From Acidobacteriota bacterium (GTDB taxonomy: Bacteria; Acidobacteriota; Thermoanaerobaculia; Multivoradales; UBA5704): DNA of 64,000 nucleotides. The notes under the pieces were generated by a model, which ran no database searches, was not told where the DNA came from, and saw nothing but the letters and a program-made list of their open reading frames with translations. The stretch is taken from contig JBKPTH010000003.1 of the NCBI GenBank assembly GCA_046765915.1, positions 63,524 to 127,523 on the forward strand, read 5' to 3'. A program made the position numbers and the translations under genes. Below are positions 7,025-59,119 of this stretch, one piece after another. Within the stretch, counting starts at the first letter, position 1, and each line of letters opens with the position of its first letter.

Positions 7025-7098
7025 ACCCTCTCCCGTCCGGCCGTTCGGGCGGGATGAACCCATGAATCCCCGCTAGCGGGGAGACAAGGAGGTTTTTC
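7025..7098 (+). promoter_or_regulatory. Second copy of the conserved leader module (hairpin 7031..7052, CCCGTCCG-gccgtt-CGGGCGGG) plus the GACAAGGAGGT RBS.
   Basis: See 5239..5308. The identity continues into the signal-peptide coding region of 7099..7659. Confidence 0.6.
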
Positions 7099-7659: not shown

Positions 7660-7685
7660 CTCTTCCGGAGAGGTGAGATAAAACC

Positions 7686-8312: not shown

Positions 8313-8337
8313 CCGCAAGCCGTATCGCGAAGATCGG

Positions 8338-8369
8338 GACCCTCCTGGCGAGGGTCCCTTTTCTTTTCT
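8338..8369 (+). terminator. Rho-independent terminator (GGGACCCTC-ctggc-GAGGGTCCC + TTTTCTTTTCT).
   Basis: 9-bp stem followed by a T-tract, downstream of metzincin copy 2. Confidence 0.8.
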
Positions 8370-8463
8370 GCGGTCGGACCTGTCTCGTTCCATGGGCCAG
8401 CCACACTAGAGGAATTGAGCCTGGAGTGATGCAGCGCCAGGAGATCATGGAAAGGAGTCGCTG

Positions 8464-8703
8464 ATGAAGAGACTCAAAATTCTCGCGCTCGCCGCGGCCG
8501 TCATGCTGAGCATCGTCGCCGTCGAGGCCTCGAACTGGACCTTCCAGGGTTGCTGGTCACCGTTCCCCTCCGGCACCTGCTACGACGTGTACACGGATTC
8601 CGCTGGAAACTACTGGCGGTGCAAGGCCTGCGGCACGACCAAGAACCCCAGCCCCAACACCTGCTTCCAGATCAATCCCTCGATCGGTTACTGGTGCTCC
8701 TGA
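8464..8703 (+). CDS. Small secreted Cys/Trp-rich peptide (79 aa, 6 Cys).
   Basis: MKRLKILALAAAVMLSIVAVEAS signal peptide with RBS GGAAAGGAG. Mature region WTFQGCWSPFPSGTCYDVYTDSAGNYWRCKACGTTKNPSPNTCFQINPSIGYWCS. Followed by a 10-bp GC hairpin at 8719..8750. Confidence 0.65.
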   Translation: MKRLKILALAAAVMLSIVAVEASNWTFQGCWSPFPSGTCYDVYTDSAGNYWRCKACGTTKNPSPNTCFQINPSIGYWCS

Positions 8704-8807
8704 AGCATCCCTGATCGGCGCGGCCCGCCTCCGCCGGTGGCGAGGCGGGCCGGCCGCCGGCCGAGTATGAAAAGATCCGAGCCCTCTCGTTCCTCGATGG
8801 AGGCTCC

Positions 8808-9605
8808 ATGATCTCGAAGCGAGCCGTTTTCTGGATGATCCTGGCGCTGGCGTCGCTGCCGGCCTTGGCGCACGACACCTGGCTGCTGGCCCGGAGCGGC
8901 GCCGTGGTGCCCGGCACCGCGGTCATCCTGGACCTGACGAGCGGCATGGCGTTCCCGGCCAACGAGACGGCGATCAAGCCCGAGCGTATCTCCCGGGCGG
9001 CCGGCCGGCTGGCGGGAGAGACTTCAGATCTCAAGGATCGGCAGACCGCCGCCAAATCCCTCGAGCTCACCGCGCGGTTGTCCAAGCCGGGCGTGGCGTC
9101 CTTGTGGGTCGAGCTGGCGCCGAAGTCGATCGACCTCACGCCGGAGCAGGTGAAGGAGTACCTCGACGAGATCGGCGCGCCCGAGGCGGTGCGGCGGGCG
9201 TGGGCCGCGATGCCGGCGCCGCGGCGCTGGCGCGAGCTGTACTCCAAGCACGCGAAAGCCTACGTGCGCGTCGGCGAGCCCGCGGACGACCGCTCCTGGG
9301 CCGAGCCCGTGGGCATGGGGCTGGAGATCGTGCCGGAGAAGGACCCGACGGCGCTGCGCCCCGGCGACGAGCTGCCTGTCCGCGTGCTGCGGAACGGCCA
9401 GCCCTTCGCCTCGTTCGCGGTCGGCCTCGTCGGCCCAGGAAACGCGCAGGGTGTTCTCAAAACGACGGACGATCAAGGGCGCGCGATCTTCCCCATTGGC
9501 AAAGCCGGCCGCTGGCTGCTGCGCGCCACCGACGTGCGGCGCTCCGCGAAGCCCGAAGCGGACTGGGAGAGCGACTTCACGACGGTGACGTTCGAGGTGC
9601 GGTGA
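8808..9605 (+). CDS. Periplasmic protein with signal peptide, DUF4198-like (family assignment tentative).
   Basis: 265 aa. Signal peptide followed by AHDTWLL... The HD-TW start of the mature protein is reminiscent of DUF4198 metal-uptake-associated proteins. Confidence 0.55.
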   Translation: MISKRAVFWMILALASLPALAHDTWLLARSGAVVPGTAVILDLTSGMAFPANETAIKPERISRAAGRLAGETSDLKDRQTAAKSLELTARLSKPGVASLWVELAPKSIDLTPEQVKEYLDEIGAPEAVRRAWAAMPAPRRWRELYSKHAKAYVRVGEPADDRSWAEPVGMGLEIVPEKDPTALRPGDELPVRVLRNGQPFASFAVGLVGPGNAQGVLKTTDDQGRAIFPIGKAGRWLLRATDVRRSAKPEADWESDFTTVTFEVR

Positions 9606-10824: not shown

Positions 10825-11070
10825 CAACCCGTCAGTTGGACTCTCCAACCCGCCGGTTGCGCTCTCCAACTCGCCAGTTGAGATCTCCAACCCGTCGGTT
10901 GCGCTCTCCAACCGGCCAGTTGGACTCTCCAACCCGCCGGTTGGGCTCTCCAACTCGGCGGTTGCGCTCTCCAACCCGCCGGTTGGGCTCTCCAATCCGC
11001 CGGTTGGACGGCTCAACTCGCCGGTTGGAAGCCCCAACTACTCAGTTGAAGAGTCCAACTCGCGAGTTGC
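10825..11070. repeat. 21-bp tandem repeat array, ~11.5 copies (consensus CCGCCGGTTG[CG]GCTCTCCAAC).
   Basis: Direct reading: ccgtcagttggactctccaac / ccgccggttgcgctctccaac / tcgccagttgagatctccaac ... with progressive degeneration toward the 3' end. Period 21 = 7 codons. It encodes SPTRRLR heptads on the + strand and LESPTGG heptads on the - strand. Confidence 0.9.
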
Positions 11071-29616: not shown

Positions 29617-30108
29617 CTAGTCGTCCACCTCGGCCTTGATCGTCTGGGCCAGGAGGGAGCCGTCGGCCTGGCGGGCGCCGCGGCCTTCGACCCGGGTCGG
29701 ATCGCCGCCGGCCACGGAGGCGGCGACTTGCGCCAGGGAGGTGAGATCTCCGCGGGCGCTCCACTGGGTCTGGCCGTTGACGGCGATGCGGGTGCCGCCG
29801 GCGAGGACGATCGTGCCGCCGTTGACCGACGCCACGGTACCCTCGAACTCGGCGCCGGCCTGCGGAGGCTTCTGCCGGCCGTTGCCGCGGCCGCGGCGGT
29901 TGTTGTTGTCGGCCTGGCCGCCGCGATCGTCGCCGGCCGGATCGTCGGCGCCGTGCCGCTTCTCGCCCACGGTGGAGGCGGAGCTGGCGGCGGCGAGGGG
30001 CTCGTCGAAGGCGGGCTCGGTGGGGCTGTGGGCGTTCGAGCAGCCGACGGCGCCCACGGCGAGGGTGGAGAGGGAGGCGAGGAGGACGAAAGCGCGATGG
30101 CGGTTCAT
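29617..30108 (-). CDS. Lipoprotein (163 aa), DUF5666-like C-terminal region (tentative).
   Basis: MNRHRAFVLLASLSTLAVGAVGC fits a lipobox. RBS AAAGGAGCC. Confidence 0.6.
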   Translation of the reverse strand: MNRHRAFVLLASLSTLAVGAVGCSNAHSPTEPAFDEPLAAASSASTVGEKRHGADDPAGDDRGGQADNNNRRGRGNGRQKPPQAGAEFEGTVASVNGGTIVLAGGTRIAVNGQTQWSARGDLTSLAQVAASVAGGDPTRVEGRGARQADGSLLAQTIKAEVDD

Positions 30109-30167: not shown

Positions 30168-32660
30168 ATGCTCACTCCGATGAGACAGGCGCAGACGCCG
30201 GCGGGAACAGCGAAGTCGAGACTTTTTTCGGCCGCCCTGCTGAGCGCCGTCCTCCTCGCCGGCGCGCCGGCCGCGGCGCAGTCCATCGACGAGGCGATCT
30301 CCCTGCACGCCGCGGGACGGCTGCGCGAGGCGTTGCGCGCGTACCGGTCGGTGGCCGCGGCCACCGCCGGCTCGGATCCCGCCGCGGCGGCCACGGCGCT
30401 CAACAACGCCTGCGTCCTCCTCGGCGATCTGGGAGATTTCCGCGCCGCGCTCCCCGACTGCCGGGAGGCCTTGCGCCTGCGCCGCGTTCTCGGCGATCCG
30501 GCGGCCGTCGCCGAGACGCTCAACAACTTGGGGCTGACGCTCGAAGCGCTGGGCCGGCCGGACGAGGCGGAGCCGCCGTTCCGCGCCGCCCTGGCGCTCA
30601 ACCGCAAGCTCGGCGACGCCGAGGCGCAGGCCATCAACCTGGGGAACCTCGCGGCCCTCGCCCTCACCCGCGGCCGCTACTCCGCGGCGATGCGGCTCTA
30701 CGTCGAAGCCGGGGATCTCGCGGCGCGGCACCGCGGCGAGCCCTGGGCGGCCGGGCAGCGGGCCATCGCGCGCATCAACCAGGGCGTGGTCTTCGAGAAG
30801 ATGGGAGCATTCCGCGAGGCGCTCGGCCTCTACAAGGAGCTGCTCGCCGGCAGCGAGGCCCTGGAGCCGCGGCGGCGCGCCGCCCTGCTCGTCAACGCGG
30901 GGGTGATCCAGCGCAACCTGGGAGATCCGGTGAGCGCCGTGGCCGCCTTCCAGGAGGCCGTCGCCGTCTTTCGCCGCGGCGGGGATCTGGCGGGGCTCTC
31001 GAACGCGTTCCTCAACCTCGGCCTCGCGCTGCATCTCAACCTCGAGCGGCCGGCGGAAGCCGAGGCGGCGTACCGCGAAGCGCTCGCGCTGGCCCGGCAA
31101 AGCGGCGACCGCACGGAGGAGATCCAGGACCTCTTCTATCTGGGCCGCCTCCTCGTGGCGCGCCGGCGGCTCGCGGAGGCGGAGGAGGTCTACCGCCATT
31201 GTTTGGCGGCGGCGCAAGAGAGCGGCTCGGCGGAGGGCCTGTGGTCGGCCCGCGAAGGGCTGGGCCGGACGGCCGCGGCGCGCGGGGATCTCGCCGGCGC
31301 CCTGGCGCATTTCGAGCAGGCGCTGCGCGAGATCGAGCGGGTGCGGCAGGGCCTGACGCGCGAGTCGTGGCGCGCCGGCTACTTCGGCGACAAGCGCGCG
31401 GTGTACGCGGCCACGGTGGATGTTCTATGGCGCATGGAACGCCGGAGCCGGGGACGCGGCGCCGCCCGCGCTCTGGAAGTGGTGCAGCGGGCCAAGGCGC
31501 GGGATCTTCTCGACGCCTTGGGACCCGGTAAGGCGCCGGCGGCGCCGCTGCGCGCGGCCGAGATCCAGGAGCGGGCCGGGGAGGGGACGGTGCTCGAATA
31601 CTTCTTCGGCGAGGACCATCTCTATCGCTGGGAGATCCGCCGGAACGGCCTGCGGATGGCGGATCTCGGTCCCAAGCGGTCGGTGCTGGAGGCCGTCCTC
31701 CGGGTCCACGGCAGCCTGGCCCGCGGCGCCGAGCCTCCGCCGGGAGACGTGGCCCGGCTGTCGCGATCTCTCCTCGCGGCAAAAGAACCGGGAGGTCTCC
31801 TCCGCATCGCGCCGGACGGCCTTCTCCATTACCTGCCGTTCGAAATCCTCGAACGCTCGGGGGTTCCCCTGGTCGAGAGAGCGGCCGTGGTGTACCTGCC
31901 CAGCGCCTCGGTGCTCGGATCGCGGCGGACGGGAGGAGGCGGAACATCTCTCCGCTTGATCGGATTTGGAGCTCCGCGCCAACCGCGATCCGTGCCCCTG
32001 CCGGCCGCAACGCGGGAGCTGGCGGCGATCGGCCGCCTGCTCGGCGGGCGCAGCGCCCTGCTGCTGGGCGAGCGGGCGACGGAGGAGGCCTTTCGCCGCG
32101 CCGTGACCGGCGGCGCGCGGGTGGTACACCTCGCGACGCACACCGTGGTCGCCGAGGGCCCGGGCGGCGGCGCCGCGATCCTTCTCAGCCCCGGCGGCAA
32201 GGACGACGGCCTGCTGCATCCGGCGGAGATCGCCGGCCTCCGCGGCCGCTGCGATCTCGCGGTGCTCGCGGCCTGTCGCACGGCCCTGGGCTCCGGCGAG
32301 GAGGGGCGGGCCCTGGCCTCCCTCACCGGCTCGTTCCTCGCCGCGGGCTCGCGGTCCGTGGTGGCGACGCTGTGGGACGTCGGAGACGCTGCGACCGCCG
32401 TCTTCATGGAGCAGCTCTACGCGCAGCTCGGAGGCGGGCAGACTCCGGCCGAAGCCCTGCGCCAGGCCAAGCTGCGGCTGCGCGCCGATCCGCGGTGGAA
32501 CCGGTCCGCCCTCTGGGCCGGTTACGTCCTGGTGGGGGAGGGTCCGCGCGTGGCGCCGCGGCGCTGGCCGTGGGAAGCGGCCATGGGGGTCCTCTTAACG
32601 CTGGGCGGGCTCGCGGCCCTCCTCCTCAGCGGAAGGCGAGGGCGCCGTTCTCGATCTTGA
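30168..32660 (+). CDS. TPR-repeat + CHAT (caspase-like) domain protein with signal peptide and C-terminal hydrophobic anchor.
   Basis: N-terminal TPR repeats (LNNLG..., LGNLA...). The C-terminal CHAT domain carries a His/Cys dyad context HLATHTVVAEG ... CDLAVLAACRTALG. The tail WEAAMGVLLTLGGLAALLLSGRRGRRSRS is a TM helix plus basic residues, resembling a C-terminal sorting signal. Confidence 0.75.
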   Translation: MLTPMRQAQTPAGTAKSRLFSAALLSAVLLAGAPAAAQSIDEAISLHAAGRLREALRAYRSVAAATAGSDPAAAATALNNACVLLGDLGDFRAALPDCREALRLRRVLGDPAAVAETLNNLGLTLEALGRPDEAEPPFRAALALNRKLGDAEAQAINLGNLAALALTRGRYSAAMRLYVEAGDLAARHRGEPWAAGQRAIARINQGVVFEKMGAFREALGLYKELLAGSEALEPRRRAALLVNAGVIQRNLGDPVSAVAAFQEAVAVFRRGGDLAGLSNAFLNLGLALHLNLERPAEAEAAYREALALARQSGDRTEEIQDLFYLGRLLVARRRLAEAEEVYRHCLAAAQESGSAEGLWSAREGLGRTAAARGDLAGALAHFEQALREIERVRQGLTRESWRAGYFGDKRAVYAATVDVLWRMERRSRGRGAARALEVVQRAKARDLLDALGPGKAPAAPLRAAEIQERAGEGTVLEYFFGEDHLYRWEIRRNGLRMADLGPKRSVLEAVLRVHGSLARGAEPPPGDVARLSRSLLAAKEPGGLLRIAPDGLLHYLPFEILERSGVPLVERAAVVYLPSASVLGSRRTGGGGTSLRLIGFGAPRQPRSVPLPAATRELAAIGRLLGGRSALLLGERATEEAFRRAVTGGARVVHLATHTVVAEGPGGGAAILLSPGGKDDGLLHPAEIAGLRGRCDLAVLAACRTALGSGEEGRALASLTGSFLAAGSRSVVATLWDVGDAATAVFMEQLYAQLGGGQTPAEALRQAKLRLRADPRWNRSALWAGYVLVGEGPRVAPRRWPWEAAMGVLLTLGGLAALLLSGRRGRRSRS

Positions 32661-33615
32661 GCCGCAGCTTGCGGCCCCGCACGCTCAGCAGGTACGTGCC
32701 GGCGGGATCGAGCGTCACCGGCGACGAGGTGCCGACCGCGGCCGAGGCGCGCGTCGGCAGGCTGATGCCGAGGAAGGTTCCGGGCACGGTGTTGAGCGTC
32801 TTGTCCGGCGACTGGAAGTTGACGACGAGGACGCCCGGCGTCGAGCGGTCCACCTGGAACGTCGCCTTGCCGTAGCGGGGGTCGATGCGCACCGCCGCCG
32901 GGCCGGCGGCCACGGCGGGATTGAAGCGCAGGGTCACCCGGCCGCCGGAGACCGCGAACGGCTCGAAGGTCGAGACCCCCAACTCCGCCGTCTCGCCCGG
33001 CGCGAGCTCGTCCCCTTCGGCCTCGACGGCCAGCGGATCGGTGGCGGCGCGGATGGTGAGCTCGGCGTTGAGAGGCTCGATGGCGATCGCGCGGCCGGAG
33101 TCGTCCGTCAGCGAGGTGAGCCCCGGGTCCACCTCCAGGAGATAGGTCTCGCCGGGAGTCAGGGACGGGTCGAGGCGCAGGAAGAAGACCGCCAGCGGGC
33201 CGTCCGCGGCGTTGACCGTGGCGGACGGCGAGGCGAACTGCACCTTGATCGCCTGGCTCTCCGCAGCGCCGGAGAGGGAGGCCTGGTTGGTGGCGTCGAC
33301 GCGCGTGCTGTAGACGACGGCGCTCACCAGCGTGGCGATCGGCCGCAGCGGCTGGGTGAGCTCGGCGACGGTGAGCGCCGCCTTGGACGCCGGGCGCCGG
33401 CGGACGCGCAGCGAGATCTGCCCCTGGCGGATGGGGCGCGCCGCATAGGTGCGCAGCACGACGGCCGTGGTGCCGCCCGGCTTGCCGATCGCCGGATTGA
33501 CGCGCAGCTTCAACGTCCGCTCGCCGCGCCGGGCCGCCGCCTCCGGCACGCCGGAGAGCAGGACCGCCAGGGCGATCAGGGCGGAGCACAGGGGAAAACG
33601 CAGGGTTCGGATCAT
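32626..33615 (-). CDS. Secreted hypothetical protein (329 aa), last gene of the ECF sigma/anti-sigma operon.
   Basis: Start MIRTLRFPLCSALIALAVLLSGVPEAAA (signal peptide). The ORF-track 416-aa version is over-extended. Confidence 0.6.
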   Translation of the reverse strand: MIRTLRFPLCSALIALAVLLSGVPEAAARRGERTLKLRVNPAIGKPGGTTAVVLRTYAARPIRQGQISLRVRRRPASKAALTVAELTQPLRPIATLVSAVVYSTRVDATNQASLSGAAESQAIKVQFASPSATVNAADGPLAVFFLRLDPSLTPGETYLLEVDPGLTSLTDDSGRAIAIEPLNAELTIRAATDPLAVEAEGDELAPGETAELGVSTFEPFAVSGGRVTLRFNPAVAAGPAAVRIDPRYGKATFQVDRSTPGVLVVNFQSPDKTLNTVPGTFLGISLPTRASAAVGTSSPVTLDPAGTYLLSVRGRKLRLKIENGALAFR

Positions 33616-33632
33616 GATGCCAGCTCCCAGGA

Positions 33633-34421
33633 TTACAGCGGCCCTTCCGGTCGGGGTTTCGTCCTGAAGGAGATCGGTTCCGAGGCCGCGAGCACGGAAC
33701 CGTCCGCTCCCAAAGCCTCTACGTTCCAGGTATAGGTGACCGCCCGGTGCAGGCGGCCGGCCGCTTCGTCCGGCAGGCGGGCCGGCGGCGCGGGGACCAC
33801 GGACTCCCAGAGGACCGTACCGTCCACCGCGGTCAGCCGCACGCGGTAAGAAAGAGCACCTTGCCAAGGATTCCAACGCAACTCGCGGGGAATCTCTTCC
33901 AGCTCGCCGCGCGGCGCCAGCGCCTCGATCTCGGCGCTGCGCATCACGCCGCCCGTCTGCGGAGCGGGGAGCGGCGGCTGCGGCCGGTAGAGAGCCCGGA
34001 AGCCCAGCCCCGCGGCGAGGATGAGCACGGCCGCGGCGGCGAGGCGGGTGAAGGTGAAGGAGCGCGAGCGCGCGGGGGGCGCCTGAGGGCGCGGGCCGCG
34101 GAACGGCACGACCTTGGCTGCCGGCTTGGCAACCGGCGAGCTTTCCTCGAGCCTCGAGACGACGAACGCCACGTCCTCGGGGCGTGCGCCGGCCGCTTCC
34201 GGAGCGGCGTCCCAGAGGCGGGCGAGATCCCGCTCGGCGGCGCAGGCCGGGCAGCGGTCGGCGTGCTCGTCGAGGGCCCGCCGGGCGTCCGACGGCAGGG
34301 CGCCGGATTCCGCCTCCAGGTAGGCCTCGGGCGGCGGGCAGCCGGCGTCCGCGGACGCCTCTGGGGATGAATACGCGGCGCGCAGCCAGTCCTGCAGATC
34401 TCGGGGTGCGTCGGTCGTCAT
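33633..34421 (-). CDS. Anti-sigma factor (zinc-finger HxxxCxxC plus a single TM helix).
   Basis: LDEHADRCPACAAERD motif and TM FTFTRLAAAAVLILAAGLGF. Overlaps the stop of the upstream ECF sigma gene. Confidence 0.75.
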   Translation of the reverse strand: MTTDAPRDLQDWLRAAYSSPEASADAGCPPPEAYLEAESGALPSDARRALDEHADRCPACAAERDLARLWDAAPEAAGARPEDVAFVVSRLEESSPVAKPAAKVVPFRGPRPQAPPARSRSFTFTRLAAAAVLILAAGLGFRALYRPQPPLPAPQTGGVMRSAEIEALAPRGELEEIPRELRWNPWQGALSYRVRLTAVDGTVLWESVVPAPPARLPDEAAGRLHRAVTYTWNVEALGADGSVLAASEPISFRTKPRPEGPL

Positions 34422-35023
34422 GGCACGATCCCTTCAGCGGACTGGCGGGCGAGCCACCGTCCGAAGCGGCGCTTGAGCTTCCGCCCGCCGCTCACGATGT
34501 AGGCCTTGGCGCCCGATTTGTTGGCGAGCTGCAGCAGGTCCGTGATGCCGGCGAGCGGCATGCCGTCGACGTAGTGGAGGTAGAGGACCCTGGCTTCCAG
34601 CGGCTCCAGGTCCCGCGCCATGGCCTCGCGCAGCGCCGCCGCGATCTGGCCGCGTCCGAGCTCCTCGTCCGCTCCCGGAGAAGGCTCCACGGGCTCGGGC
34701 ACCGCTTCGTCGTCCAGGTCCTGGGTCTCCCGCCGCCGCGCCGCGATGCCGCGGTTGATGGCGACGCTCCGCGTCACCGTGTAGAGCCAGGTCGAGAACC
34801 GGCTCTCGCCGCGGAAGGAGCCGAGCCGCTCGTGCACCCGCAGGAACACCTCCTGCGCCAGGTCGGCCGCCTCCTGCCGGTCGCCCGAGATGCGCAGGCA
34901 CCAGGCGGTCACCTTGGCGTAGTAGCGCCGGTAGAGAAGGGCCAGCGCCGCGTCGGCCGCGGAGCCGGGCTGCCGCCGCGCCGTCTCGATCAGCTCTTTG
35001 TCGGTGAGGGTGTCGAAATCCAT
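34418..35023 (-). CDS. ECF (sigma-70 family, RpoE-like) sigma factor.
   Basis: Region 2 (LAQEVFLRVHERLGSF, FSTWLYTVTRSVAINR) and region 4 (ARVLYLHYVDGMPLAGITDLLQLANKSGAKAYIVSGGRKLKRRF). Confidence 0.85.
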   Translation of the reverse strand: MDFDTLTDKELIETARRQPGSAADAALALLYRRYYAKVTAWCLRISGDRQEAADLAQEVFLRVHERLGSFRGESRFSTWLYTVTRSVAINRGIAARRRETQDLDDEAVPEPVEPSPGADEELGRGQIAAALREAMARDLEPLEARVLYLHYVDGMPLAGITDLLQLANKSGAKAYIVSGGRKLKRRFGRWLARQSAEGIVP

Positions 35024-35184
35024 GCCGGAGGGTGTGGAGAGGGGCCGGCCTAGGATAACCGACGCAAGGCGCTGGGGAGAGGGCGAGGGCGTGCATCATG
35101 GGGTGAGACAGCGCCGGAGGTGCGGGGGAACAACTATCCGATCCGATTCTTCTCGATCATCGGAGCGTCTCCGTGCCGCCGAAG

Positions 35185-41715: not shown

Positions 41716-44463
41716 CTAGCTCGCGCCTTTGGCAGATCTGCGGGAGTCGAGGAGGGCCCGGAACTCCGGGTCCTCCTTGAAGGAGCGGAACTCGGGGATC
41801 GTGAACCACTCCCTCCGCAGACCTTTTTTGAGGGCGAGCAAAGCGTAGTAGCGGGCCGACACGCGGTCTCCGAGGAGCGCATAGAGCTGGGCCGCTTGGT
41901 TGAGGACTTGGACGTCCTCTGGTCTTTGTTTAAGCACTTCGTCGGCGATCTGTTCTGCGTCGGCCCCGTTGCCCGTCCGCGCGAGGCACTGCGCGTACAG
42001 CATGCGAGTGCGCGCATCTAGGAAAGGTGGTCCGGCGGCTAGTTCCTTCGCTAGGGTCCCATATAGGCGCCGCGCTTCGACAAGGTCTCCCTGGGCTTCG
42101 AGCGCAGTGGCCAGATTGAAGCGGGTCAGGAGGTGGCTAGGCTTCAAGGCGAGAGCCCGGCGGTATGCCTCGGCGGCCCCTGCATAGTCGCCGAGGAGGA
42201 AGCGGACGAAACCGAGATTCGTAAAGTAAGGGCGCGTTGGCCGGACGCGGATCAGCCTTTCGTACAGCGTCATGGCGCGCTTCAGGTCTCCGAAGCCTAC
42301 CTCCAGCGCCGCTATGTTCTCCAGTACGAACTGGTTGTCTGGTTGCGCCGCCAAGAGACCTTTAAGGCGAAGTTGGGCGCTGTCGCTCGCACCCAAGCGG
42401 AATTCAAGCGTTGCTACTTCCAGGATGTTGCGCCAGGTGGGCCGTCGGTGGGCGACTTCCTCTCTTAGATGGAAAGCCTGTTCCAACTCTCCCTGGGCCT
42501 CCAGGAGGTCGGCCCTGGCGCTCTGCACACGCGCGTCGCCGGGAGCCAGCTTCTCCAGCCGAGCTAGCGTAGTACTCGCCGCGTCGAGCTGCGCTGCCTC
42601 CAATTCGATTCGGATACGGGTGAAGAGGACCCCTGGATCATAAGGGGCGGTTTTCTCAGCTCGAGCCACATAGCCGAACGCTCGACCAAGGGTTCCTTGG
42701 TTGCGCGCGATGCCTGCAGCAAGCAAATAAGCGCCGACCAGGCCAGGTGAGGCCCGCAGTAGAGAATCCAACCGGGCAAGCTCGTCGTTTCCGAGACGTT
42801 CTCCGCGGTCAACCCGGTGCTCTAGCTGAATGTAAGCGGAATAGTCCTGGGGTCTAACTTTTCCGCTTGGCGATCCCGACCGGAGAGGATGGTCGGAGTA
42901 GATCTGCTGTACGTTGGCTCGCACTCCCTCAGCGAGCTGATGGGCGTTCTCGATACCCATCTGGACTTCGAATGGCCCGACCGTGGCCAGAACCTCACCT
43001 CCGAGCTTGCGGAGACGGCGGAAGACGACATGACACCAATCTCCCTGGCAGTTGAGGCGGGGGAGGAGCACCTCGTCCGCTTCCGCGGCGCGCAGTCTCT
43101 CGATTTCAGCGCCGCTCTTCTCATTCCGCTCGGGTGGATCAAGGGGCTGCAGACTCTTGAGGGAGACGAGCGTGGCGAGGGTTGCTTCCATCACGTCAGA
43201 GGCAACGAAGGAAAGCTCCGCATCTTTCCCGACTGACTTCACAACCGGGCGCAAGACCGCCACCCGCACTGGTGGCTTCGATGCGAGGCGCCAGGGTCGC
43301 CACAAGAGGACAATGATGAGTGCGCTGATTGCCAGCGCCGCAGTGACGAGGCCCTTCCACAGCCCTTTCCTGCTGGGGCGACGGAGAGTCGCCGACCCTT
43401 TCGGCAACTCCTCCGATTCGAGATCGGCCAGGAGCTCCGCGGCGTTTGCATAGCGCTCGGCCCGGTCTTTGGCCAATGCTCGGTCGACCACGCGGGCCAG
43501 ATCCGGCGGGCGGCCGCGCTTCAGCGGTTCAGGCTCATGGGTCAGGATCGCTGAGACCACCGCTTCCATGCTCTCGCCGTTAAAGGGTCGCTGGCCGGCG
43601 ACCATCTCATACAGCAGCACCCCCAGCGACCAGACATCAGTGCGGCTGTCCACCGGCTCGCCACGGATCTGCTCGGGAGACATGTAGGCGGGCGTTCCCC
43701 AACTTGCGCCGGTGCGGGTGAGGGAGACTTCGTCGCCCTTCAGGCGTGCGATGCCGAAGTCGAGGATCTTCGCCTCGCCGCGACGAGTCAGCATCACGTT
43801 GGCCGGCTTGATGTCGCGGTGGACGATCCCGGCTTCGTGAGCGCGCGCCAGGCCTCGCGCTATCTGGATCGCCACCTCCCGGGCCTCCGCGAGCGGCAGC
43901 GGCCCGCGCCGGATCCTCTCCCGCAGCGTCTCTCCCTCGTAGTAGGACAGGACGATGTACAGGCGGCTATCGCTTTCGCCGACATCGTGGATAGTGCAGA
44001 GGTTGGGATGGTCGACGGCCGCCGCGGCCCTCGCCTCACGAAGGAACCGCTCTTTCGCCTTGCGATCTCGGCTGAATTCCGGCGGCAGGACCTTGACCGC
44101 CACACGGCGTCCGAGCCGCGTGTCCTCCGCCTCGTAGACTGTTCCCATGCCGCCACCGCCGATCTCGCGGAGGAGCCGGTACGGTCCCACCTGGCGGCCT
44201 ACGAGATCCGTCACGACCTCGTCCTCGTCGGCCTCGTCACCGAACAGATCCGCGGCGTAGTCGCCAGCCGGCACACCGAGAAAGCTGCCGGCCTTCGCGT
44301 CTGCTACTAGGAGGGCTTCGACCTCTGCACGTAGGTCCGAATCGCCGGCGCAAGCTTGGTCGAGAAGAGCGCTGTGCTCCTCAGGGGGAAGATCCAAGAC
44401 AAGGTCGAGAATCGCTTCGATCCGCCGCCAGTGGGCGACATCCGTCGGCGAGTCTGTCCTCAT
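41716..44463 (-). CDS. Ser/Thr protein kinase with TM segment and C-terminal TPR repeats.
   Basis: Hanks kinase motifs GGGGMGTVYEA, VAVKVL, HRDIKPANVML, DFGIA, GTPAYMSPE. TM ALAISALIIVLLW. TPR-like C-terminal half. The start overlaps the upstream sigma stop (ATGA). Confidence 0.9.
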   Translation of the reverse strand: MRTDSPTDVAHWRRIEAILDLVLDLPPEEHSALLDQACAGDSDLRAEVEALLVADAKAGSFLGVPAGDYAADLFGDEADEDEVVTDLVGRQVGPYRLLREIGGGGMGTVYEAEDTRLGRRVAVKVLPPEFSRDRKAKERFLREARAAAAVDHPNLCTIHDVGESDSRLYIVLSYYEGETLRERIRRGPLPLAEAREVAIQIARGLARAHEAGIVHRDIKPANVMLTRRGEAKILDFGIARLKGDEVSLTRTGASWGTPAYMSPEQIRGEPVDSRTDVWSLGVLLYEMVAGQRPFNGESMEAVVSAILTHEPEPLKRGRPPDLARVVDRALAKDRAERYANAAELLADLESEELPKGSATLRRPSRKGLWKGLVTAALAISALIIVLLWRPWRLASKPPVRVAVLRPVVKSVGKDAELSFVASDVMEATLATLVSLKSLQPLDPPERNEKSGAEIERLRAAEADEVLLPRLNCQGDWCHVVFRRLRKLGGEVLATVGPFEVQMGIENAHQLAEGVRANVQQIYSDHPLRSGSPSGKVRPQDYSAYIQLEHRVDRGERLGNDELARLDSLLRASPGLVGAYLLAAGIARNQGTLGRAFGYVARAEKTAPYDPGVLFTRIRIELEAAQLDAASTTLARLEKLAPGDARVQSARADLLEAQGELEQAFHLREEVAHRRPTWRNILEVATLEFRLGASDSAQLRLKGLLAAQPDNQFVLENIAALEVGFGDLKRAMTLYERLIRVRPTRPYFTNLGFVRFLLGDYAGAAEAYRRALALKPSHLLTRFNLATALEAQGDLVEARRLYGTLAKELAAGPPFLDARTRMLYAQCLARTGNGADAEQIADEVLKQRPEDVQVLNQAAQLYALLGDRVSARYYALLALKKGLRREWFTIPEFRSFKEDPEFRALLDSRRSAKGAS

Positions 44464-45062
44464 CCCGCGGCCTGGCCGCCGAGGGCCTGAAAGAGAAAGG
44501 CTTTGGCCTTGCGCCAGTCGCGGCGCACCGTCCGTTCCGAGGTCCCCATCACCTGTGCCGTCTCCTCCTCGGTCAGACCGGCGAAGAACCGCAGCTCCAC
44601 GAGCCGGCTCAGCCGCTCGTTGAGAGCCGCGAGCGACGTCAGGGCGCGATCCACGGCGAGGACCTCGACGGCGCGCGCCTCGGCGTCCGGATCCGCTCCG
44701 TCCATGTGCAGCTCGTCGAAGGCGATCCGCACCTCCTCGCCGCCGCGTTTCTTCGCCACGCGACGGCGGGCGGAATCCACGAGGATCTGGCGCATCGCGA
44801 GGGCCGCCACGGAGTAGAAGTGGTAGCGGTCCTGCCAGGTGATGCCCTCGTGGTCCACCAGTTTCAGGTAGGCCTCATGCACGAGAGCGGTGGTGGTAAG
44901 CGTCTGTCCGGACCGGCGACGGCGAATCTCCCGGCGCGCCATGACGCGCAACTCGTCATACACCAGGGTCATCAGCCGGTGCGCGGCGCCGCCGTCCCCC
45001 TGGCGAGCTGCGGCGAGGAGGCCGGTGATCTCTCCCGTCGAGCCGAGGTTCTGCCGGTCCAT
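44460..45062 (-). CDS. ECF-type sigma factor of the kinase-associated class (TIGR02999-like).
   Basis: 200 aa. ...ALVHEAYLKLVD... and region 4 LVELRFFAGLTEEETAQVMGTSERTVRRDWRKAKAFL. Immediately upstream of, and overlapping, the STK gene. Confidence 0.8.
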   Translation of the reverse strand: MDRQNLGSTGEITGLLAAARQGDGGAAHRLMTLVYDELRVMARREIRRRRSGQTLTTTALVHEAYLKLVDHEGITWQDRYHFYSVAALAMRQILVDSARRRVAKKRGGEEVRIAFDELHMDGADPDAEARAVEVLAVDRALTSLAALNERLSRLVELRFFAGLTEEETAQVMGTSERTVRRDWRKAKAFLFQALGGQAAG

Positions 45063-53710: not shown

Positions 53711-53838
53711 GTTCGGGGCCTCCACTCTCCTAGTGACGGCCCGGCCGAGAACATTTCACGACTCCAGGTAAGCAAGAAAAAAGGAGGACGCCCGGGAGGA
53801 GGCGCCCGGTTGAGGTATGAGCCTGAGGGAGATCCGTC

Positions 53839-54141: not shown

Positions 54142-55047
54142 TCACTGATTCTCCCGAAGGACTTCGAACTTCGTGGTGAGCGTTTCGGTTCCAGCCGTGA
54201 CCGCCAGGTCGTAGAGTCCCGTGGTAAGGCGCTGCGCCGGGATCTTCAGGACGAGGGCCGTGCCCCAATCCAGCCGTTTCGGCGTCAGGCCTTTCTTTTC
54301 CCATACGGTCCCCTCGGTCTCGCTCTTCACGGCCGCGTCGAACGATCTATAATCCTCCAATCCTTCTAGATCGACTTGGATCTCGACGAGTTCCGCGTTC
54401 GCCGGAATGGCGGATTTCTGGACGTCTTCGGCTCCGCGCAGGGTAGCCAGGGAGAGCACGAAGACGGTCTTGACGGGCTCGTGCCGAGAAGCCTGCTCCT
54501 CCTGTTGGGGCGTCGTCGGCTCGGGTGGCGGCTGCGGAACTGTCGGCTCAGGTGGCGGCTGCGGAACCGGCTGCTTGGGCGGCGGCTGCAGAACCGGCTG
54601 CTTGGGTGGCGGCTGCGGAGGGGGATTCGGCTGGAGGTTGTCTCGCCTCGGCAGGCCGAGTACCAACAGGAGAACTGCGGCGGCGGCCAGAGCGGCCCAA
54701 CGACTCGTCGTGAGCCGCGGAAACAGGGCGGTACGGCGGCGGAAAGGCACCACGGAAACCGCCGTCCGCTGGGCTTCCCGGGCGGCCGTGTTGAGGGAGC
54801 GCGCAAGGGCAAGGCGTCCCTCCCCTGCGGGAGATGAGGCGAGACGGCGGCGCACCTGCTCCTTCTCCGCTGCGGTAAGCTCGCCCCGATCGTAGGCGGC
54901 CAGGAGGTCAGCCTCCAGCGCCTCGCAGAGGTCGAAGAGCTCGTCGTCCTCGATCAGCCCCTGTTCGAGGCGGTCCATTTCTTCTTCCGGGAGCTCGCCG
55001 AGGAGATAGCTCCTCAGAAGCTCGGTGTTTTGTAGGTCTCCATCCAT
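54142..55047 (-). CDS. Anti-sigma factor (N-terminal anti-sigma domain, TM helix, Pro-rich linker, C-terminal periplasmic domain).
   Basis: MDGDLQNTELLRSYLLGELPEEEMDRLEQ... (anti-sigma N-terminal motif). TM WAALAAAAVLLLVLGL. PPQPPPKQPVLQPPPKQPVPQPPPEP linker. RBS GGAGGAGG. Confidence 0.75.
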   Translation of the reverse strand: MDGDLQNTELLRSYLLGELPEEEMDRLEQGLIEDDELFDLCEALEADLLAAYDRGELTAAEKEQVRRRLASSPAGEGRLALARSLNTAAREAQRTAVSVVPFRRRTALFPRLTTSRWAALAAAAVLLLVLGLPRRDNLQPNPPPQPPPKQPVLQPPPKQPVPQPPPEPTVPQPPPEPTTPQQEEQASRHEPVKTVFVLSLATLRGAEDVQKSAIPANAELVEIQVDLEGLEDYRSFDAAVKSETEGTVWEKKGLTPKRLDWGTALVLKIPAQRLTTGLYDLAVTAGTETLTTKFEVLRENQ

Positions 55048-55126
55048 AAGATCCAGGCCTCCTCCTCTCCAATCTCAATGACGAGTGCTCGCCAACACGA
55101 AAACATTTCGCGGGAGAAGGATCCCG

Positions 55127-55738
55127 TCAGTGTTCGAGATACTTGTGGACACAGCCCTCCAGCTTGCGGCGAACGCGGTGAACCCGGATGCGCAGCGCGT
55201 TGAGCTCGATTCCCATCTCCTGGGCGAGAGTCTGCCGGTTCCGGATGTTGTCCTCCCCTTGGTGGTAGCGGAGCATCAGGTCCCTCTCGTTCTCGGCCAG
55301 TTTGGCGAGGCACCGGCGAAGGCATTCGAGGAGGGGATCGTCGGCCTCGGGCACAGGCGGAGGTGGAGGCCATCCGCCGCTCTCCAAAGCTCGGCGTTGT
55401 CGTGAAGATTGCCGCAGAACCTCCTTGTAGACGAGATGGGCAACGCCACAGAAATACCCATAGGGATCGCTCGACCGGAGCTTGACCCCTTCCGCTATAC
55501 GGCGCGAGACGCGGTTGATGGTCTCGTCCGCCAGGTCTTCGGGAGCCTCGCACCCACGCCACTCGAAGAGCCGGATGAGCCTGCGACGGATCTCCTCGTA
55601 GAGTCTGGCCGCCCGGTCGCGGTCGTCCGGATCGAGCTGCGCGAGGAGCGCCTCGAAACCTTCCTTGGTCAAGCCTCGCGGCTGGCGCGGGGGCTTGCCA
55701 TTCTTCCCATTCTCGCCATTCCCTCTCGTCACCTCCAT
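55127..55738 (-). CDS. ECF sigma factor.
   Basis: Start MEVTRGNG... Region 2 (ARLYEEIRRRLIRLFEWRG..., DPYGYFCGVAHLVYKEV) and region 4 (ENERDLMLRYHQGEDNIRNRQTLAQEMGIELNALRIRVHRVRRKL). Overlaps the 3' end of the TPR-CHAT gene by ~10 nt. Confidence 0.8.
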   Translation of the reverse strand: MEVTRGNGENGKNGKPPRQPRGLTKEGFEALLAQLDPDDRDRAARLYEEIRRRLIRLFEWRGCEAPEDLADETINRVSRRIAEGVKLRSSDPYGYFCGVAHLVYKEVLRQSSRQRRALESGGWPPPPPVPEADDPLLECLRRCLAKLAENERDLMLRYHQGEDNIRNRQTLAQEMGIELNALRIRVHRVRRKLEGCVHKYLEH

Positions 55739-58700
55739 TCTCCCTGCAGTGAGAACCCGGCCCAATAGAAGGGCGATCTCCAACTCGGCTTGCGCGCCAC
55801 TTCGAGCTGTGCCTGACGCAGGGCGGCAGCGGGCGAGAGTCCGTCGCGGAGCATGCCGCGATAGAAGGTCGTCATCAGCTCGGCGGTGGCCCGGTCCTCG
55901 ACGCTCCACAGGCTGGCGAGCACGCGCGCGGCGCCGGCGTACATGAAGCCGCGCGTCAGTCCCACCAGCCCCTCGCCGCGGATCTCTTTGCCGAGGGCTG
56001 TCTGGCAGGCCGAGAGCACGACCAGGTCGGCCCGAAGGCGGAGGCTGTAGATGTCGCTGAGCCGCAAGTATCCATCCTGGTGTTGGCCGTTCTCATCGTA
56101 GAGGGACATCACCAGACGCGAGAGCTCCGGACGCTCGGTTTCGATGACACCGTGGGTGGCGAAGTGAACGGTGCGGAAGAGATTCAATCTGCCGTCCGTC
56201 ACGGCGGACCGCGAGGCGGCACAGCCTACCGCCTTGAAAACCTCTTCCGGAGGAAGGAGCGCCGCGATCGCGTCCGCCTCTTTCCCCGAAGCACGCAGAC
56301 GGCGAAGATCGGGTTCCACGGTCGATTCCGGAGCCTGGCCTCCCCGCGTTTGTTCCACGGATGTGGATGGCAGCGCGGACGGCCCTTCCGTGCTTGGGCT
56401 GTGCGAAATCCGCTTGTCGTCCGGCTCGAAGACCGGATCCGCGAAGATGGCCAGCCTCCGGGGTGCCGGCTGCCGGTCGCGAAGCTCGCGCCGCAGCACG
56501 GCCAACACGGAGGCGGAAGGCAGATTCACGATCTCGTGGCCGCTGACGAGAGGTTCTCCAGTCGAGGGGAGAGGCAACGCCGCGAACGGCACGTACTGCA
56601 GCGCGCCGTCAGCCACGATCAGCAGCGGACGATCGCCGAGGAGCGGCTCGGCCGGTTGGAGGATCAGCCGGGATAGGTCGCGGGCCACTTCCTCGACTTT
56701 GAGGTCGGCGGCGCGCCGCTCCTGCGCCGGAGGGCGCCCGCTGCGTACGGTGAGGAGCTGGTAATAGTCGCGGGCCGCCGCTTCGATCCGCGCACGCCCC
56801 GGCAGCTCGAAGCTGGCAAAGGAGTCGGCGGTGACAGCCCAGAGGAAGCTCTTCTCGACACCGAGGGAGTACTCGAGCAGCAGAGCCCCGCCATCCAGCA
56901 CCTGGCGCTGGATCTCCTCCAGGCTGAGGGGCTGCGCCTGGGTGAGCGCGGCATAGCGAGGGCTGCTCTGGCGCAGCTCCACCTGGGCTCGCCGATACGC
57001 ATCGAGGGCCTCTTGGAGCCTCCGCCGGGCTTCCGCCAGCTTCTCGGAGTCCGAGTTTTCCTGCTTCAGCAGCTCACGCAGATGGTAGTCGCGGGCGCTG
57101 AGGTCCTGCCGGGTTTGCCGCTCTCTTTCGAGGACGGCGGGCTCCGCTCCCAGATCGATCTGGGCTTGCGCTTCGTTCAGGATCTCGAGCAGGCTGCGCG
57201 CGCGGGCCCGCTCGCTCGCTCGCAGGGCCTCCGCCGCAAACCCCTCCATCGGCCTTTGTACATGGAGAGCCATCAGGGTGTTCATCTGGAGCTCGTAGAT
57301 CTCCTGCGTGGAGGCCAGGAAAGAGGTCTTCGTATCCGGGTCGACCAGTCGACCACGCCACAACTCGATCAAGTCGAGGATGGGACGGAGCCGCGAGAGG
57401 GTGCCATCCAGGTCGCCGCCTTCCCGGGCCAACCGCGCCAGGTCAAGGTTGATCTCGGCCTCGCGGCCGCGATCTCCCCGCCGGCCGGCGAAGGATAGCG
57501 CCTGCAAGAGCTCGGCTTCGGCGGCGGCTTTGTCGCCCAGATCCCGCAGGACGCTTCCCAGCGCGTAATGCGACATGGCCTGCTCTTCCCGCGTTCCGTC
57601 CAGGCTGACCGCTTCGCGAGCCCAAGCCGCCGCCTGCGTCGGCTGCTCCCCCCGCAGGAGGAGCGCGAGCCTCGCGAGCGCGAAGACTTGGATTTTCCGA
57701 TTCCCGATCTGGCGTCCCAAGGCCAAAGCCCGGCTGAGAGAGTCCCGCGCTTCTGCGAGCTCCCGGCGATGGCTGTAGACGTCCGCCAGATTGATCAGGA
57801 TCGTAGCGGTCATCCCGCGATCACCGGTCGAGACGGTCATGTCCAGGGCGGCCTTGTAACGATCGAAAGCCTTCTCCCATTCACCGAGAACGCGGTGGGT
57901 GCCGCCCAGGTTGGTCAGGATTCTGATCTCTGCCGAGCGGTTGGAGGATTGGCGGGCCAGGGTCAGAGCTTGTGTGTAGAGCCCGAGGGCAGTCTGCATC
58001 TCACCGAGATGGTCATAACCGATCGCCAGATTGTTCAGCACGTTGAACTCTGTCGTAAGATTTCCGGACTGCTGCGCCTTCTCGAGAGCCTGGCGCTGCA
58101 GGTCCACCCCTTGCCGACTCTCGCCCGCTTCGTCGGCGAGCCGGCCGAGGAGGTACAGGTTATCCGCCTGCAGCCCGGCTTCTCCCAACTCGCGGGCCAG
58201 GTCGAGCGCCTGATCGTGCGCTGCTCGGGCCTCCTCGGGACGATTGAGATTCCACAAACAGCGTCCGACCCAGGTGAGCGCTTCGGCCTGGAAAACCCTG
58301 CTCCGGCGGCTGGTCTGACCGCCCCAGTCCACCGCGGCCTGACGGAAGTCCGCTAATGCCTGGTCGGTTGCCGATTTGTAGCGGAGACGGCCAAGGCGGT
58401 AGAGGATCTCCGCGCCCTTTTCCCGGTCGCCCACTTGACGCCAGAGGGTAAGAGCGTGCTCGAAAGATCCGATCCGATCATCCGAGGAGAGGGCGTCCCA
58501 GGTAGCCCGGACCGCTGTGGCCCTCACCTGGTCCGCCTCGGTCGGTTTTCTTGGACCCTCGACTCTCAGGAAGTAACGGCCGGAGCCCTCGCCCGAAGCG
58601 TTCACCTCGAGCCGGTAGGACCCTGGGTTCGCTGCCACGACAGCGAGCTCCTGAGCGTCATCCGCATAGTCGTCGGGTCCTGGGGAATCCGCCCCGGTCA

Positions 58701-58980
58701 CCAAAGTCCCCGCAGGATCGACAAGTCGAAGCGCGAGCTTGACGCCGTTCTCTTCGGCCACGACCCGCAGGAACTGCCCCGTCCGGAGCTCGAAAGGGTA
58801 GACGTGCATCTCGCCGCCGTGGATCTCGCGTTCGATCGGTCGCTGCTGCGCGGTGGAGGCGGCGGTGGGAGAGGGACCTTCCGCGCAGCAGAGCACGGCC
58901 GCGAGGAGTCCGAAGAGGAGCCAGAGCGCGCCGCGGCTGAAGAGCGATGCAGATCGGCGAAAAACGGGTGAAGGCGTCAT
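55729..58980 (-). CDS. TPR-repeat + CHAT (caspase-like) domain protein with signal peptide; first gene of the CHAT / ECF sigma / anti-sigma operon (alternative start 59034).
   Basis: MTPSPVFRRSASLFSRGALWLLFGLLAAVLCCAEG signal peptide. Many TPR repeats (LNNLA/LTNLG...). C-terminal CHAT: HFATHGVIE..., LVVLSACQTALG. Confidence 0.75.
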   Translation of the reverse strand: MTPSPVFRRSASLFSRGALWLLFGLLAAVLCCAEGPSPTAASTAQQRPIEREIHGGEMHVYPFELRTGQFLRVVAEENGVKLALRLVDPAGTLVTGADSPGPDDYADDAQELAVVAANPGSYRLEVNASGEGSGRYFLRVEGPRKPTEADQVRATAVRATWDALSSDDRIGSFEHALTLWRQVGDREKGAEILYRLGRLRYKSATDQALADFRQAAVDWGGQTSRRSRVFQAEALTWVGRCLWNLNRPEEARAAHDQALDLARELGEAGLQADNLYLLGRLADEAGESRQGVDLQRQALEKAQQSGNLTTEFNVLNNLAIGYDHLGEMQTALGLYTQALTLARQSSNRSAEIRILTNLGGTHRVLGEWEKAFDRYKAALDMTVSTGDRGMTATILINLADVYSHRRELAEARDSLSRALALGRQIGNRKIQVFALARLALLLRGEQPTQAAAWAREAVSLDGTREEQAMSHYALGSVLRDLGDKAAAEAELLQALSFAGRRGDRGREAEINLDLARLAREGGDLDGTLSRLRPILDLIELWRGRLVDPDTKTSFLASTQEIYELQMNTLMALHVQRPMEGFAAEALRASERARARSLLEILNEAQAQIDLGAEPAVLERERQTRQDLSARDYHLRELLKQENSDSEKLAEARRRLQEALDAYRRAQVELRQSSPRYAALTQAQPLSLEEIQRQVLDGGALLLEYSLGVEKSFLWAVTADSFASFELPGRARIEAAARDYYQLLTVRSGRPPAQERRAADLKVEEVARDLSRLILQPAEPLLGDRPLLIVADGALQYVPFAALPLPSTGEPLVSGHEIVNLPSASVLAVLRRELRDRQPAPRRLAIFADPVFEPDDKRISHSPSTEGPSALPSTSVEQTRGGQAPESTVEPDLRRLRASGKEADAIAALLPPEEVFKAVGCAASRSAVTDGRLNLFRTVHFATHGVIETERPELSRLVMSLYDENGQHQDGYLRLSDIYSLRLRADLVVLSACQTALGKEIRGEGLVGLTRGFMYAGAARVLASLWSVEDRATAELMTTFYRGMLRDGLSPAAALRQAQLEVARKPSWRSPFYWAGFSLQGEWR

Positions 58981-59119
58981 CCTGTCTTCGATACCTGCAA
59001 CTTCCCCCGAGCGCATCAGAATTAGCGAAGGCACAACCTATTTTATCGCCTCCCGATCATGTCGCGGGACAGAACGGAAAAAGGGCGGAAATGCGGCGAA
59101 TTCGCGCTAAGCTAGCCCT

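Follow-up and report, generated by a model that had tools for sequence, protein, structure and literature searches.

Predicted exported TPR-CHAT proteins linked to ECF sigma/anti-sigma pairs at two loci of an Acidobacteriota bacterium: possible two-gene counterparts of DdvA

We analyzed a 64,000-nt stretch of DNA (the window) from an Acidobacteriota bacterium (Thermoanaerobaculia; Multivoradales; UBA5704), namely positions 63,524-127,523 of the forward strand of contig JBKPTH010000003.1 in assembly GCA_046765915.1. At two loci in this window, a gene for a TPR protein ending in a caspase-like CHAT domain (a TPR-CHAT protein) lies beside genes for a sigma factor of the extracytoplasmic function (ECF) kind and a single-pass anti-sigma factor. 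The GC content of the window is high (about 60-74%), and its nearest relatives are metagenome-assembled genomes of Thermoanaerobaculia (Acidobacteriota). A 133-kb NCBI contig and Logan assemblies of SRR20019834 contain identical copies of the proteins. The TPR-CHAT genes, the sigma/anti-sigma pairs and a gene for a 329-aa secreted protein lie where an earlier note on this DNA had placed them, and independent public gene calls reproduce the reading frames at both loci. The topologies given throughout (signal peptides and transmembrane, or TM, helices) were read from the sequence. The first locus (locus 1) contains the following features:

30168..32660, plus strand: CHAT1, 830 aa, with a predicted signal peptide, a TPR array, a CHAT domain, and a C-terminal TM helix and basic tail

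34418..35023, minus strand: sigma1, a canonical ECF sigma factor (TIGR02937, 78.3 bits against a cut-off of 42.9; Sigma70_r2, E 9.3e-17)

33633..34421, minus strand: anti1, a predicted single-pass anti-sigma factor whose cytoplasmic CHCC zinc domain is joined by a TM helix to a periplasmic C-terminus of about 115 aa

32626..33615, minus strand: sec1, 329 aa, with a predicted signal peptide; the last gene of the sigma1 operon

35106..35131, minus strand: promoter motif of the sigma1 operon, TGTTCC-N15-CTGTCT, an exact match

30183..30208, minus strand: second sigma1-type motif, GTTCC-N15-CTGTCT, within CHAT1 codons 6-14 on the opposite strand and facing the DUF5666 gene

29617..30108, minus strand: DUF5666 lipoprotein gene (Pfam DUF5666, E 3.1e-6), divergent from CHAT1

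The CHAT domain of CHAT1 (PF12770, clan CD caspase-like; residues 543-791) scores 204.6 bits against a Pfam cut-off of 24, and TPR_12 matches the protein four times. The histidine and cysteine of the catalytic dyad lie in the motifs VHLATH and LAACRTALG, respectively, and are invariant wherever they are covered, i.e., in 37 and 36 of 39 aligned CHAT1-family rows, with gaps in the remainder. The N-terminus resembles a signal peptide, and at the other end a hydrophobic helix is followed by the Arg-rich sequence RRGRRSRS. This TM helix and basic tail, preceded by the residues PxVxPxRR(P)W, are kept in those family members that have a cleanly read 3' end. All of these features, the signal peptide, the contexts of the dyad, and the C-terminal helix and tail, had been described correctly in the earlier note. 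The comparison with sorting signals that it had proposed was negative: the tail has no PEP or GlyGly motif and matches no sorting-signal model at E <= 0.01. We therefore regard it as a conserved plain membrane anchor, by which CHAT1 would be held on the periplasmic face of the inner membrane.

The genes sigma1, anti1 and sec1 form a minus-strand operon that converges on the plus-strand CHAT1 gene, such that the 3' ends of sec1 and CHAT1 overlap by 35 nt. By its score above the TIGR02937 cut-off, sigma1 belongs to the ECF (group 4) sigma-70 factors. The anti1 gene overlaps sigma1 by 4 nt at the sigma1 stop codon, and the zinc motif of its product (C28/H53/C57/C60) is kept in all 19 readable sequences of 21 orthologs. 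Its Pfam zf-HC2 score of 16.7 bits is under the cut-off, the NCBIfam anti-sigma match is weak, and a PDB search with the N-terminus gave no significant match. The sec1 protein found no family match in Pfam/NCBIfam model scans; it is one of the two proteins, along with anti2 of the second locus, for which structures were predicted in this analysis, and its model suggests a secreted protein of two tandem cohesin-fold domains.

Of the 16 other loci with a sigma1 gene, all but L027 also have the promoter motif upstream of it (15 loci; L numbers denote fetched loci), as do L050 and L052, and the sigma1 operon is probably autoregulated. Between the motif and the sigma1 ATG lies a leader of about 80 nt (35024..35105, minus strand) which has conserved blocks in orthologs, e.g., GG(G/T)TATCC, and an ATG a few bases past the -10 element suggests a possible leaderless small open reading frame (ORF) or an RNA element. 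Rfam detected nothing in the window, this leader included. The exact motif occurs twice in the 64-kb window, versus 0.03 matches expected and no case of at least two matches in 100 shuffles, with the reservation that the motif was itself defined from one of these two.

A counterpart of the second match is found in the same place in L002, L003, L022, L024, L038/L034 and L039, of which L024 and L038 are deep-branching, if one extra spacer base and T or C at the last position are allowed. The DUF5666 gene that this match faces has the likely start MNRHRAF..., a lipobox (AVG|C) and a Shine-Dalgarno site, within an ORF reaching 30147. It adjoins the CHAT gene in L002, L003, L022, L024 and L038, and also in L050, where a sigma1-type motif lies between the two genes. 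We predict from the motif that the DUF5666 lipoprotein gene is a member of the sigma1 regulon. With sigma1-type motifs on both of its flanks, CHAT1 is thus bracketed by predicted sigma1-dependent units. An extra sigma1-type promoter is present in L052 at 3623-3648, ahead of a Calx-beta gene, and in the same locus the sec1 cohesin-fold gene is tandemly duplicated (6971-9026; 335 and 341 aa).

The second locus (locus 2) contains the following features:

55729..58980, minus strand: CHAT2, 1083 aa, with a predicted signal peptide, an N-terminal beta-rich region, a TPR array and a CHAT domain; the first gene of the operon

55127..55738, minus strand: sigma2, a divergent ECF-type sigma factor whose ATG overlaps the CHAT2 stop by 10 nt

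54142..55047, minus strand: anti2, a predicted single-pass anti-sigma factor with an N-terminal helical bundle, a TM helix, a Pro-rich linker and an Ig-like beta-sandwich of about 105 aa

53839..54081, minus strand: small ORF of 80 aa after anti2

53786..53807, minus strand: hairpin and trailing T run resembling a terminator, where the locus-2 operon probably ends

The three genes of locus 2 and the small ORF are co-directional in the order CHAT2, sigma2, anti2 and small ORF, and the public gene call likewise gives CHAT2 as 1083 aa. CHAT2 scores 227.6 bits against the Pfam CHAT model (cut-off 24; scored on the longer 55729..59034 reading) and lacks a C-terminal anchor. The TIGR02937 score of sigma2, 24.5 bits, is below the 42.9 cut-off, and TIGR02989 matches weakly in 22 of 22 sigma2-family members (best E 1.7e-14), all of them below the 124-bit cut-off. 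A profile of the family matches the ECF sigma factors SigL (E 3.5e-4) and SigE in the PDB over a span from the sigma2 to the sigma4 domain. By these comparisons sigma2 is ECF-like, if divergent. Four cysteines are conserved in the family, two in a CLxxC motif where region 4 begins and two in a C-terminal CVxxC motif, and could bind a metal or sense redox state.

The sequence of anti2 has no Cys/His zinc motif. Its AlphaFold2 (AF2) model consists of an N-terminal helical bundle, a disordered region containing the TM segment, the Pro-rich linker, and a well-predicted Ig-like sandwich, a conserved domain with generic Ig-like fold matches. A 27-nt tandem repeat (54517..54619, 3.8 copies) encodes the 9-residue PPPxxPVxQ repeats of the periplasmic linker, the length of which varies widely between orthologs. 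Being long, variable, Pro-rich and built of repeats, and lying between the TM helix and the globular domain, this linker would make an accessible substrate. An ORF of 72-101 aa occupies the position of the small ORF in relatives; its sequence conservation is weak, and its membership in the module uncertain. The spacer between CHAT2 and the divergent dinB gene, compared in five genomes, has as conserved elements only a sigma70-like -10 block (GATAAAATAG) and a dinB-proximal block. A conserved block beside dinB, TAGCTTAGCGCGAA..CGCCGC.TTTCCGCC (59060..59119 and orthologous spacers), may be an SOS operator or another shared operator. In lower-GC lineages, a different gene abuts the CHAT gene.

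The earlier note had stated that the association at locus 1 recurs at 54142..58980. The genes are indeed present there, but the statement needs qualification, as their order differs, the sigma and anti-sigma factors are not detectably similar to those of locus 1, anti2 has no zinc motif, and sigma2 falls below curated cut-offs. Locus 1 is convergent with a 35-nt 3' overlap, whereas locus 2 is co-directional with a stop/start overlap. CHAT1 and CHAT2 are 30% identical, and pairwise comparison detected no similarity between sigma1 and sigma2 or between anti1 and anti2. The recurrence therefore represents two independent pairings and not a duplication.

We then asked how far each pairing is conserved. 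For the CHAT1 family, one genome per species was scanned, and a locus was considered evaluable if it offered at least 4 kb of downstream sequence; gene maps of fetched loci consist of ORFs picked by GC3 (GC content at third codon positions). The scan found 42 CHAT1-family loci at 48-88% identity; of the 32 evaluable ones, 17 have a sigma1-anti1-sec1 operon that converges on the CHAT gene. In a simple neighbor-joining tree, which has no support values, the operon is found in 12 of 14 crown-clade loci as well as in the deepest branches (L024, L026 and L027; CHAT identity 49-51%). Among the other flanking genes, carB is retained solely in L002, the closest relative, and the DUF5666 gene in five loci. 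Look-ups that started from sec1 retrieved a convergent CHAT gene on two of three contigs, with 3' overlaps of 41 nt (L050) and 62 nt (L052). Twelve relatives (L004, L005, L007-L010, L012, L014, L040, L042, L043 and L052) carry, upstream of the CHAT1-family gene and mostly right next to it, a divergent second operon of an unrelated kind (ECF-zfHC2-DUF4252-DUF4252), and the CHAT gene sits between two ECF operons where the sigma1 operon is also present. We lean, with moderate confidence, towards a functional linkage of CHAT1 with the ECF/anti-sigma pair of locus 1.

At locus 2, the order CHAT-sigma-anti-sigma-small ORF and the stop/start overlap were found in all six reverse look-ups, four of which started from anti2 homologs (42-61% identity) and two from sigma2 homologs (61-65%). 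A metagenome scan with CHAT2 yielded 69 loci with CHAT identities of 25-60%. Of these, 55 were evaluable, and in 41 of the 55 (GC 0.51-0.74) the next gene after the CHAT gene is of the sigma2 family; 33 of the 41 also have an anti2-like gene. After dereplication, the CHAT gene is followed by a sigma2-family gene in 30 of 43 loci at 95% and in 12 of 25 at 80%. The sigma2 family itself is large, with 1901 relatives at E <= 1e-5 in a 90%-clustered collection. Among the matches listed for anti2, no homolog is fused to a CHAT domain, and nearly all are 273-349 aa long, which is too short for a TPR-CHAT fusion. We are largely confident that CHAT2 is functionally linked with the ECF/anti-sigma pair of locus 2.

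Two further arrangements were seen in the fetched loci. In 25 metagenome loci, among them L098 (3725-5272), L077-L084, L086, L088, L089, L091 and L094-L101, TPR-CHAT-sigma2-anti2 is immediately preceded, on the same strand, by a gene for a clostripain-like Peptidase_C11 protein that has no evident signal peptide, making a four-gene module with two clan-CD proteases. Genes for an integrase and an Abi_2 protein follow in L098. A third gene order is found in L104 (1560-8940), where a CHAT-SAVED gene (1001 aa), a canonical ECF sigma gene, a zf-HC2 anti-sigma gene and a TPR-CHAT gene follow one another; the sigma factor belongs to a third ECF family, the TPR-CHAT start overlaps the anti-sigma stop, and CHAT-SAVED is a protease of the cyclic-nucleotide-sensor type. 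Because the operon structure is conserved, the pairing recurs in three gene orders and with no fewer than three unrelated families of sigma/anti-sigma factors, and a fused form exists, the linkage of predicted exported TPR-CHAT proteins with ECF/anti-sigma pairs is well supported. The association that the earlier note had proposed thus goes beyond chance, given the counts at both loci and the known fusion protein DdvA (PMC11506125), and the alternative it had named, a coincidence in this genome only, fails since the pairing is conserved in many other genomes.

To find the closest characterized relatives of the CHAT domains, a profile of both families was compared to the PDB; single-sequence searches with CHAT1 and CHAT2 had returned eukaryotic TPR proteins only. 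The best match of the profile was DdvA (8ROT_B, E 1e-6), aligned over the dyad region, while separase and Csx29 were matched at E of about 0.01-0.03. DdvA of Myxococcus xanthus is a single chain in which a TM helix connects a zinc anti-sigma domain of the CHCC type to a periplasmic TPR-CHAT part (PMC11506125), and its partner is the ECF sigma factor DdvS (PMC11506125, PMC6061681). In the proposal of its authors, a signal induces DdvA to cleave itself, as the site-1 step that precedes the action of RseP, although they could not trigger this cleavage (PMC11506125). The predicted exported CHAT proteins of the window adjoin sigma/anti-sigma pairs, and do so again in related genomes, which suggests a two-gene version of a DdvA-type sensor. 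That both loci are split modules of this kind, with the CHAT protein as the site-1 protease of the anti-sigma factor, is the reading we favor, tentatively and at somewhat below even chances.

Under this reading, the single-pass anti-sigma factor would hold the ECF sigma factor in the cytoplasm, while the TPR-CHAT protein would work on the periplasmic side, CHAT1 tethered and CHAT2 soluble; the architectures and predicted topologies fit such an encounter of CHAT and anti-sigma factor in the periplasm. A signal, possibly a protein, would be bound by the TPR array and activate the His-Cys dyad of the CHAT domain, which would then cut the ectodomain or an exposed linker of the anti-sigma factor (site-1 cleavage). 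An RseP-type intramembrane protease might complete the cleavage, with cytoplasmic proteases also involved, and the released sigma factor would transcribe envelope genes nearby as well as its own operon. In the case of sigma1, these targets would be the cohesin-fold protein and the DUF5666 lipoprotein, both of which are encoded behind GTTCC-N15-CTGTCT promoters.

Several observations weigh against this reading. At locus 1, CHAT1 has no sigma1-type promoter upstream on its own strand, and the regulatory logic there is therefore one of adjacency only. Nor is the linkage of CHAT gene and operon obligatory at this locus: two nested CHAT1 clades have neither the sigma1 operon nor an ECF gene (one, "M16", is flanked by genes for an OPT transporter, a histidine kinase and an M16 peptidase, the other, "FAD", by those for a halogenase-like enzyme and an E1 dehydrogenase), L003 and L004 lack the sigma1 operon, and L051 has the operon with no CHAT gene within 8 kb. 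The gene convergent to the operon in L051 was considered as a degraded CHAT gene and rejected, as it is unrelated. At locus 2, no ECF-type promoter could be defined in the dinB-CHAT2 spacer of the five genomes, and the position of CHAT2 as first gene of its operon is equally compatible with a co-expressed output. The genes dinB and fumC flank locus 2 in relatives too, so part of its conservation is plain synteny, and within one class conservation is partly shared ancestry. Finally, the DdvA substitutions H862A and C907A caused no phenotype without signal, and the proteolytic step in DdvA is unproven (PMC11506125).

Three rival explanations were considered, here in descending order of weight. 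The CHAT protein could be an output, i.e., an envelope or extracellular effector (in turnover, antagonism or defense) that is controlled by or coordinated with the ECF system and does not act on the anti-sigma factor. ECF operons often carry targets of their sigma factor, CHAT2 is co-transcribed with sigma2 and anti2 and would be co-induced if the operon is autoregulated, and sigma1 is predicted to control further proteins that are secreted or belong to the envelope (the cohesin-fold protein, the DUF5666 lipoprotein and, in relatives, Calx-beta proteins). The CHAT1-family members without a sigma1 operon fit an output as well, and the authors of an ECF classification note that context alone cannot separate regulators from targets (PMC7826278). 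Yet CHAT1 has no sigma1-type promoter on its strand, and a CHAT gene placed ahead of the sigma gene with overlapping codons is typical of a co-regulator and not of a downstream target. The recurrence with at least three unrelated ECF/anti-sigma families in three gene orders, and the existence of a fused anti-sigma/TPR-CHAT protein, DdvA, to which the CHAT domains here are closest, also speak for a regulator, and we consider an output unlikely.

Less weight still falls on a TPR-CHAT protein that acts without proteolysis, as a sensor or co-anti-sigma factor that docks on the Ig-like ectodomain (cf. RseB-RseA) and gates another site-1 protease. TPR arrays are protein-binding modules, both anti-sigma factors have small folded ectodomains that would suit docking, and the bulky TPR-CHAT part of DdvA sterically blocks RseP while its catalytic mutants behave like wild type (PMC11506125); the dyad would then be retained for another substrate or for autoprocessing. 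However, the invariance of the dyad and its surrounding motifs, where covered, argues for retained catalysis, and the loci from Thermoanaerobaculia have no further conserved protease, which makes docking improbable in our view. The last alternative concerns locus 1 only, where inherited synteny with no coupling could have left an ECF-rich island around a common exported protease gene. The locus-1 genes are convergent and not co-transcribed, each partner occurs without the other, all locus-1 loci come from one class-level lineage, and the second, unrelated ECF operon beside the CHAT gene of 12 relatives points to ECF-dense surroundings. Against such an island, the linkage outlasts every other flanking gene, down to 49% CHAT identity, the 3' overlap of the CHAT and sec1 genes is retained in the window, L050 and L052, sigma1-type promoters bracket the CHAT gene, and the independent arrangements of locus 2 and L104 point the same way. 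Uncoupled synteny thus seems to us the most improbable of the three.

Should CHAT be the site-1 protease, as in the reading we favor, the implications could be wider. We advance with little confidence, as a rather unlikely proposition, that split TPR-CHAT/ECF/anti-sigma operons form a large undescribed class of envelope signaling systems with a dedicated site-1 protease of the caspase family, in which C11, encoded in the same operon, could complete the destruction of the anti-sigma factor in some lineages, DdvA would be a fused offshoot and the Craspase of type III-E CRISPR systems a cytoplasmic parallel. If so, the apparently cytoplasmic C11 and CHAT would make a two-protease cascade controlling a sigma factor, and caspase-like signaling proteolysis would extend to the bacterial periplasm outside defense. 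Fused DdvA homologs have been reported from a narrow range, Myxococcota and one Comamonas (PMC11506125), whereas split modules are common and involve several unrelated ECF/anti-sigma families. With protease and substrate as two proteins, the proposed caspase-type site-1 cleavage would be directly testable. In the literature that we searched, there was no account of operons that join a separate gene for an exported TPR-CHAT protein to an ECF/anti-sigma pair.

Two other features of the window stand apart from these loci. A third ECF sigma gene (PF07638 type; 44460..45062, minus strand) is directly followed by a gene for a Ser/Thr kinase with C-terminal TPRs (41716..44463); an ECF sigma gene beside a kinase gene is a known pairing. 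A 21-nt tandem repeat at 10825..11028 has 9.7 copies with 81% matches and the consensus CAACCCGCCGGTTGGGCTCTC.

Compared to known systems, the loci share features with several. In classical regulated intramembrane proteolysis, the known site-1 proteases are of the serine or metalloprotease type, and their genes usually lie apart from that of the sigma factor, whereas the candidate here is a cysteine protease of clan CD whose gene lies within the operon or next to it. What is alike is the single-pass anti-sigma factor and the proposal that a periplasmic site-1 cut licenses site-2 cleavage and sigma release, as in the processing of anti-sigma factors by DegS/RseP (RseA-sigmaE) and PrsW/RasP (RsiW-sigmaW) (summarized in PMC11506125). 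The ECF54 group of Actinobacteria, which has no anti-sigma factor, has been noted for neighboring genes that encode carboxypeptidase, subtilase and CHAT proteins (PMC8999054, PMC7826278). It resembles our loci in the conserved CHAT gene beside an ECF sigma gene and in the proteolytic control that is proposed; it differs in being actinobacterial and in having no anti-sigma factor, whereas loci 1 and 2 both have one.

In the Craspase of type III-E CRISPR systems, Cas7-11 together with the TPR-CHAT protein Csx29 cleaves Csx30 and thereby frees an RpoE-like ECF sigma factor (PMC10028731). A TPR-CHAT protein is wired to an ECF sigma factor in both cases, by cleavage of a sigma inhibitor in Craspase and by proposal here. 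However, Craspase works in the cytoplasm under RNA guidance, and its genes accompany cas genes and an array, whereas CHAT1 and CHAT2 have predicted signal peptides, and the window does not hold a type III-E Craspase module. We also considered sigma2 as a III-E CRISPR sigma factor and rejected this, as it scores 27 bits against NF041236 (cut-off 100), a weaker match than to generic ECF models, and the III-E sigma model is matched by only 8 of 22 sigma2-family members. PADLOC reported only a generic TPR model for the window, and no CRISPR-like array was found within it, leaving a defense-system reading of the window unsupported. Outside the window, L098 (integrase, Abi_2) and L104 (CHAT-SAVED) hint at defense contexts.

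The closest likeness is to DdvA-DdvS, from which our loci differ in several respects. The host of DdvA belongs to Myxococcota and ours to Acidobacteriota; no CBASS/CRISPR regulon lies near the loci here, which are flanked by carB, dinB and fumC; and sigma2 is a divergent, Cys-rich ECF factor. DdvA carries its TPR-CHAT part in the same polypeptide as the anti-sigma domain, whereas at both of our loci the two are separate genes, the TPR-CHAT proteins having predicted signal peptides of their own (and CHAT1 its own C-terminal anchor) and anti1 and anti2 small ectodomains of their own. What both share is an ECF sigma factor, a single-pass anti-sigma factor, and a periplasmic TPR-CHAT part with a His-Cys dyad, and anti1, unlike anti2, bears the same CHCC zinc motif as DdvA. 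The same hypothesis can be applied to both, namely that CHAT serves as the site-1 protease ahead of RseP.

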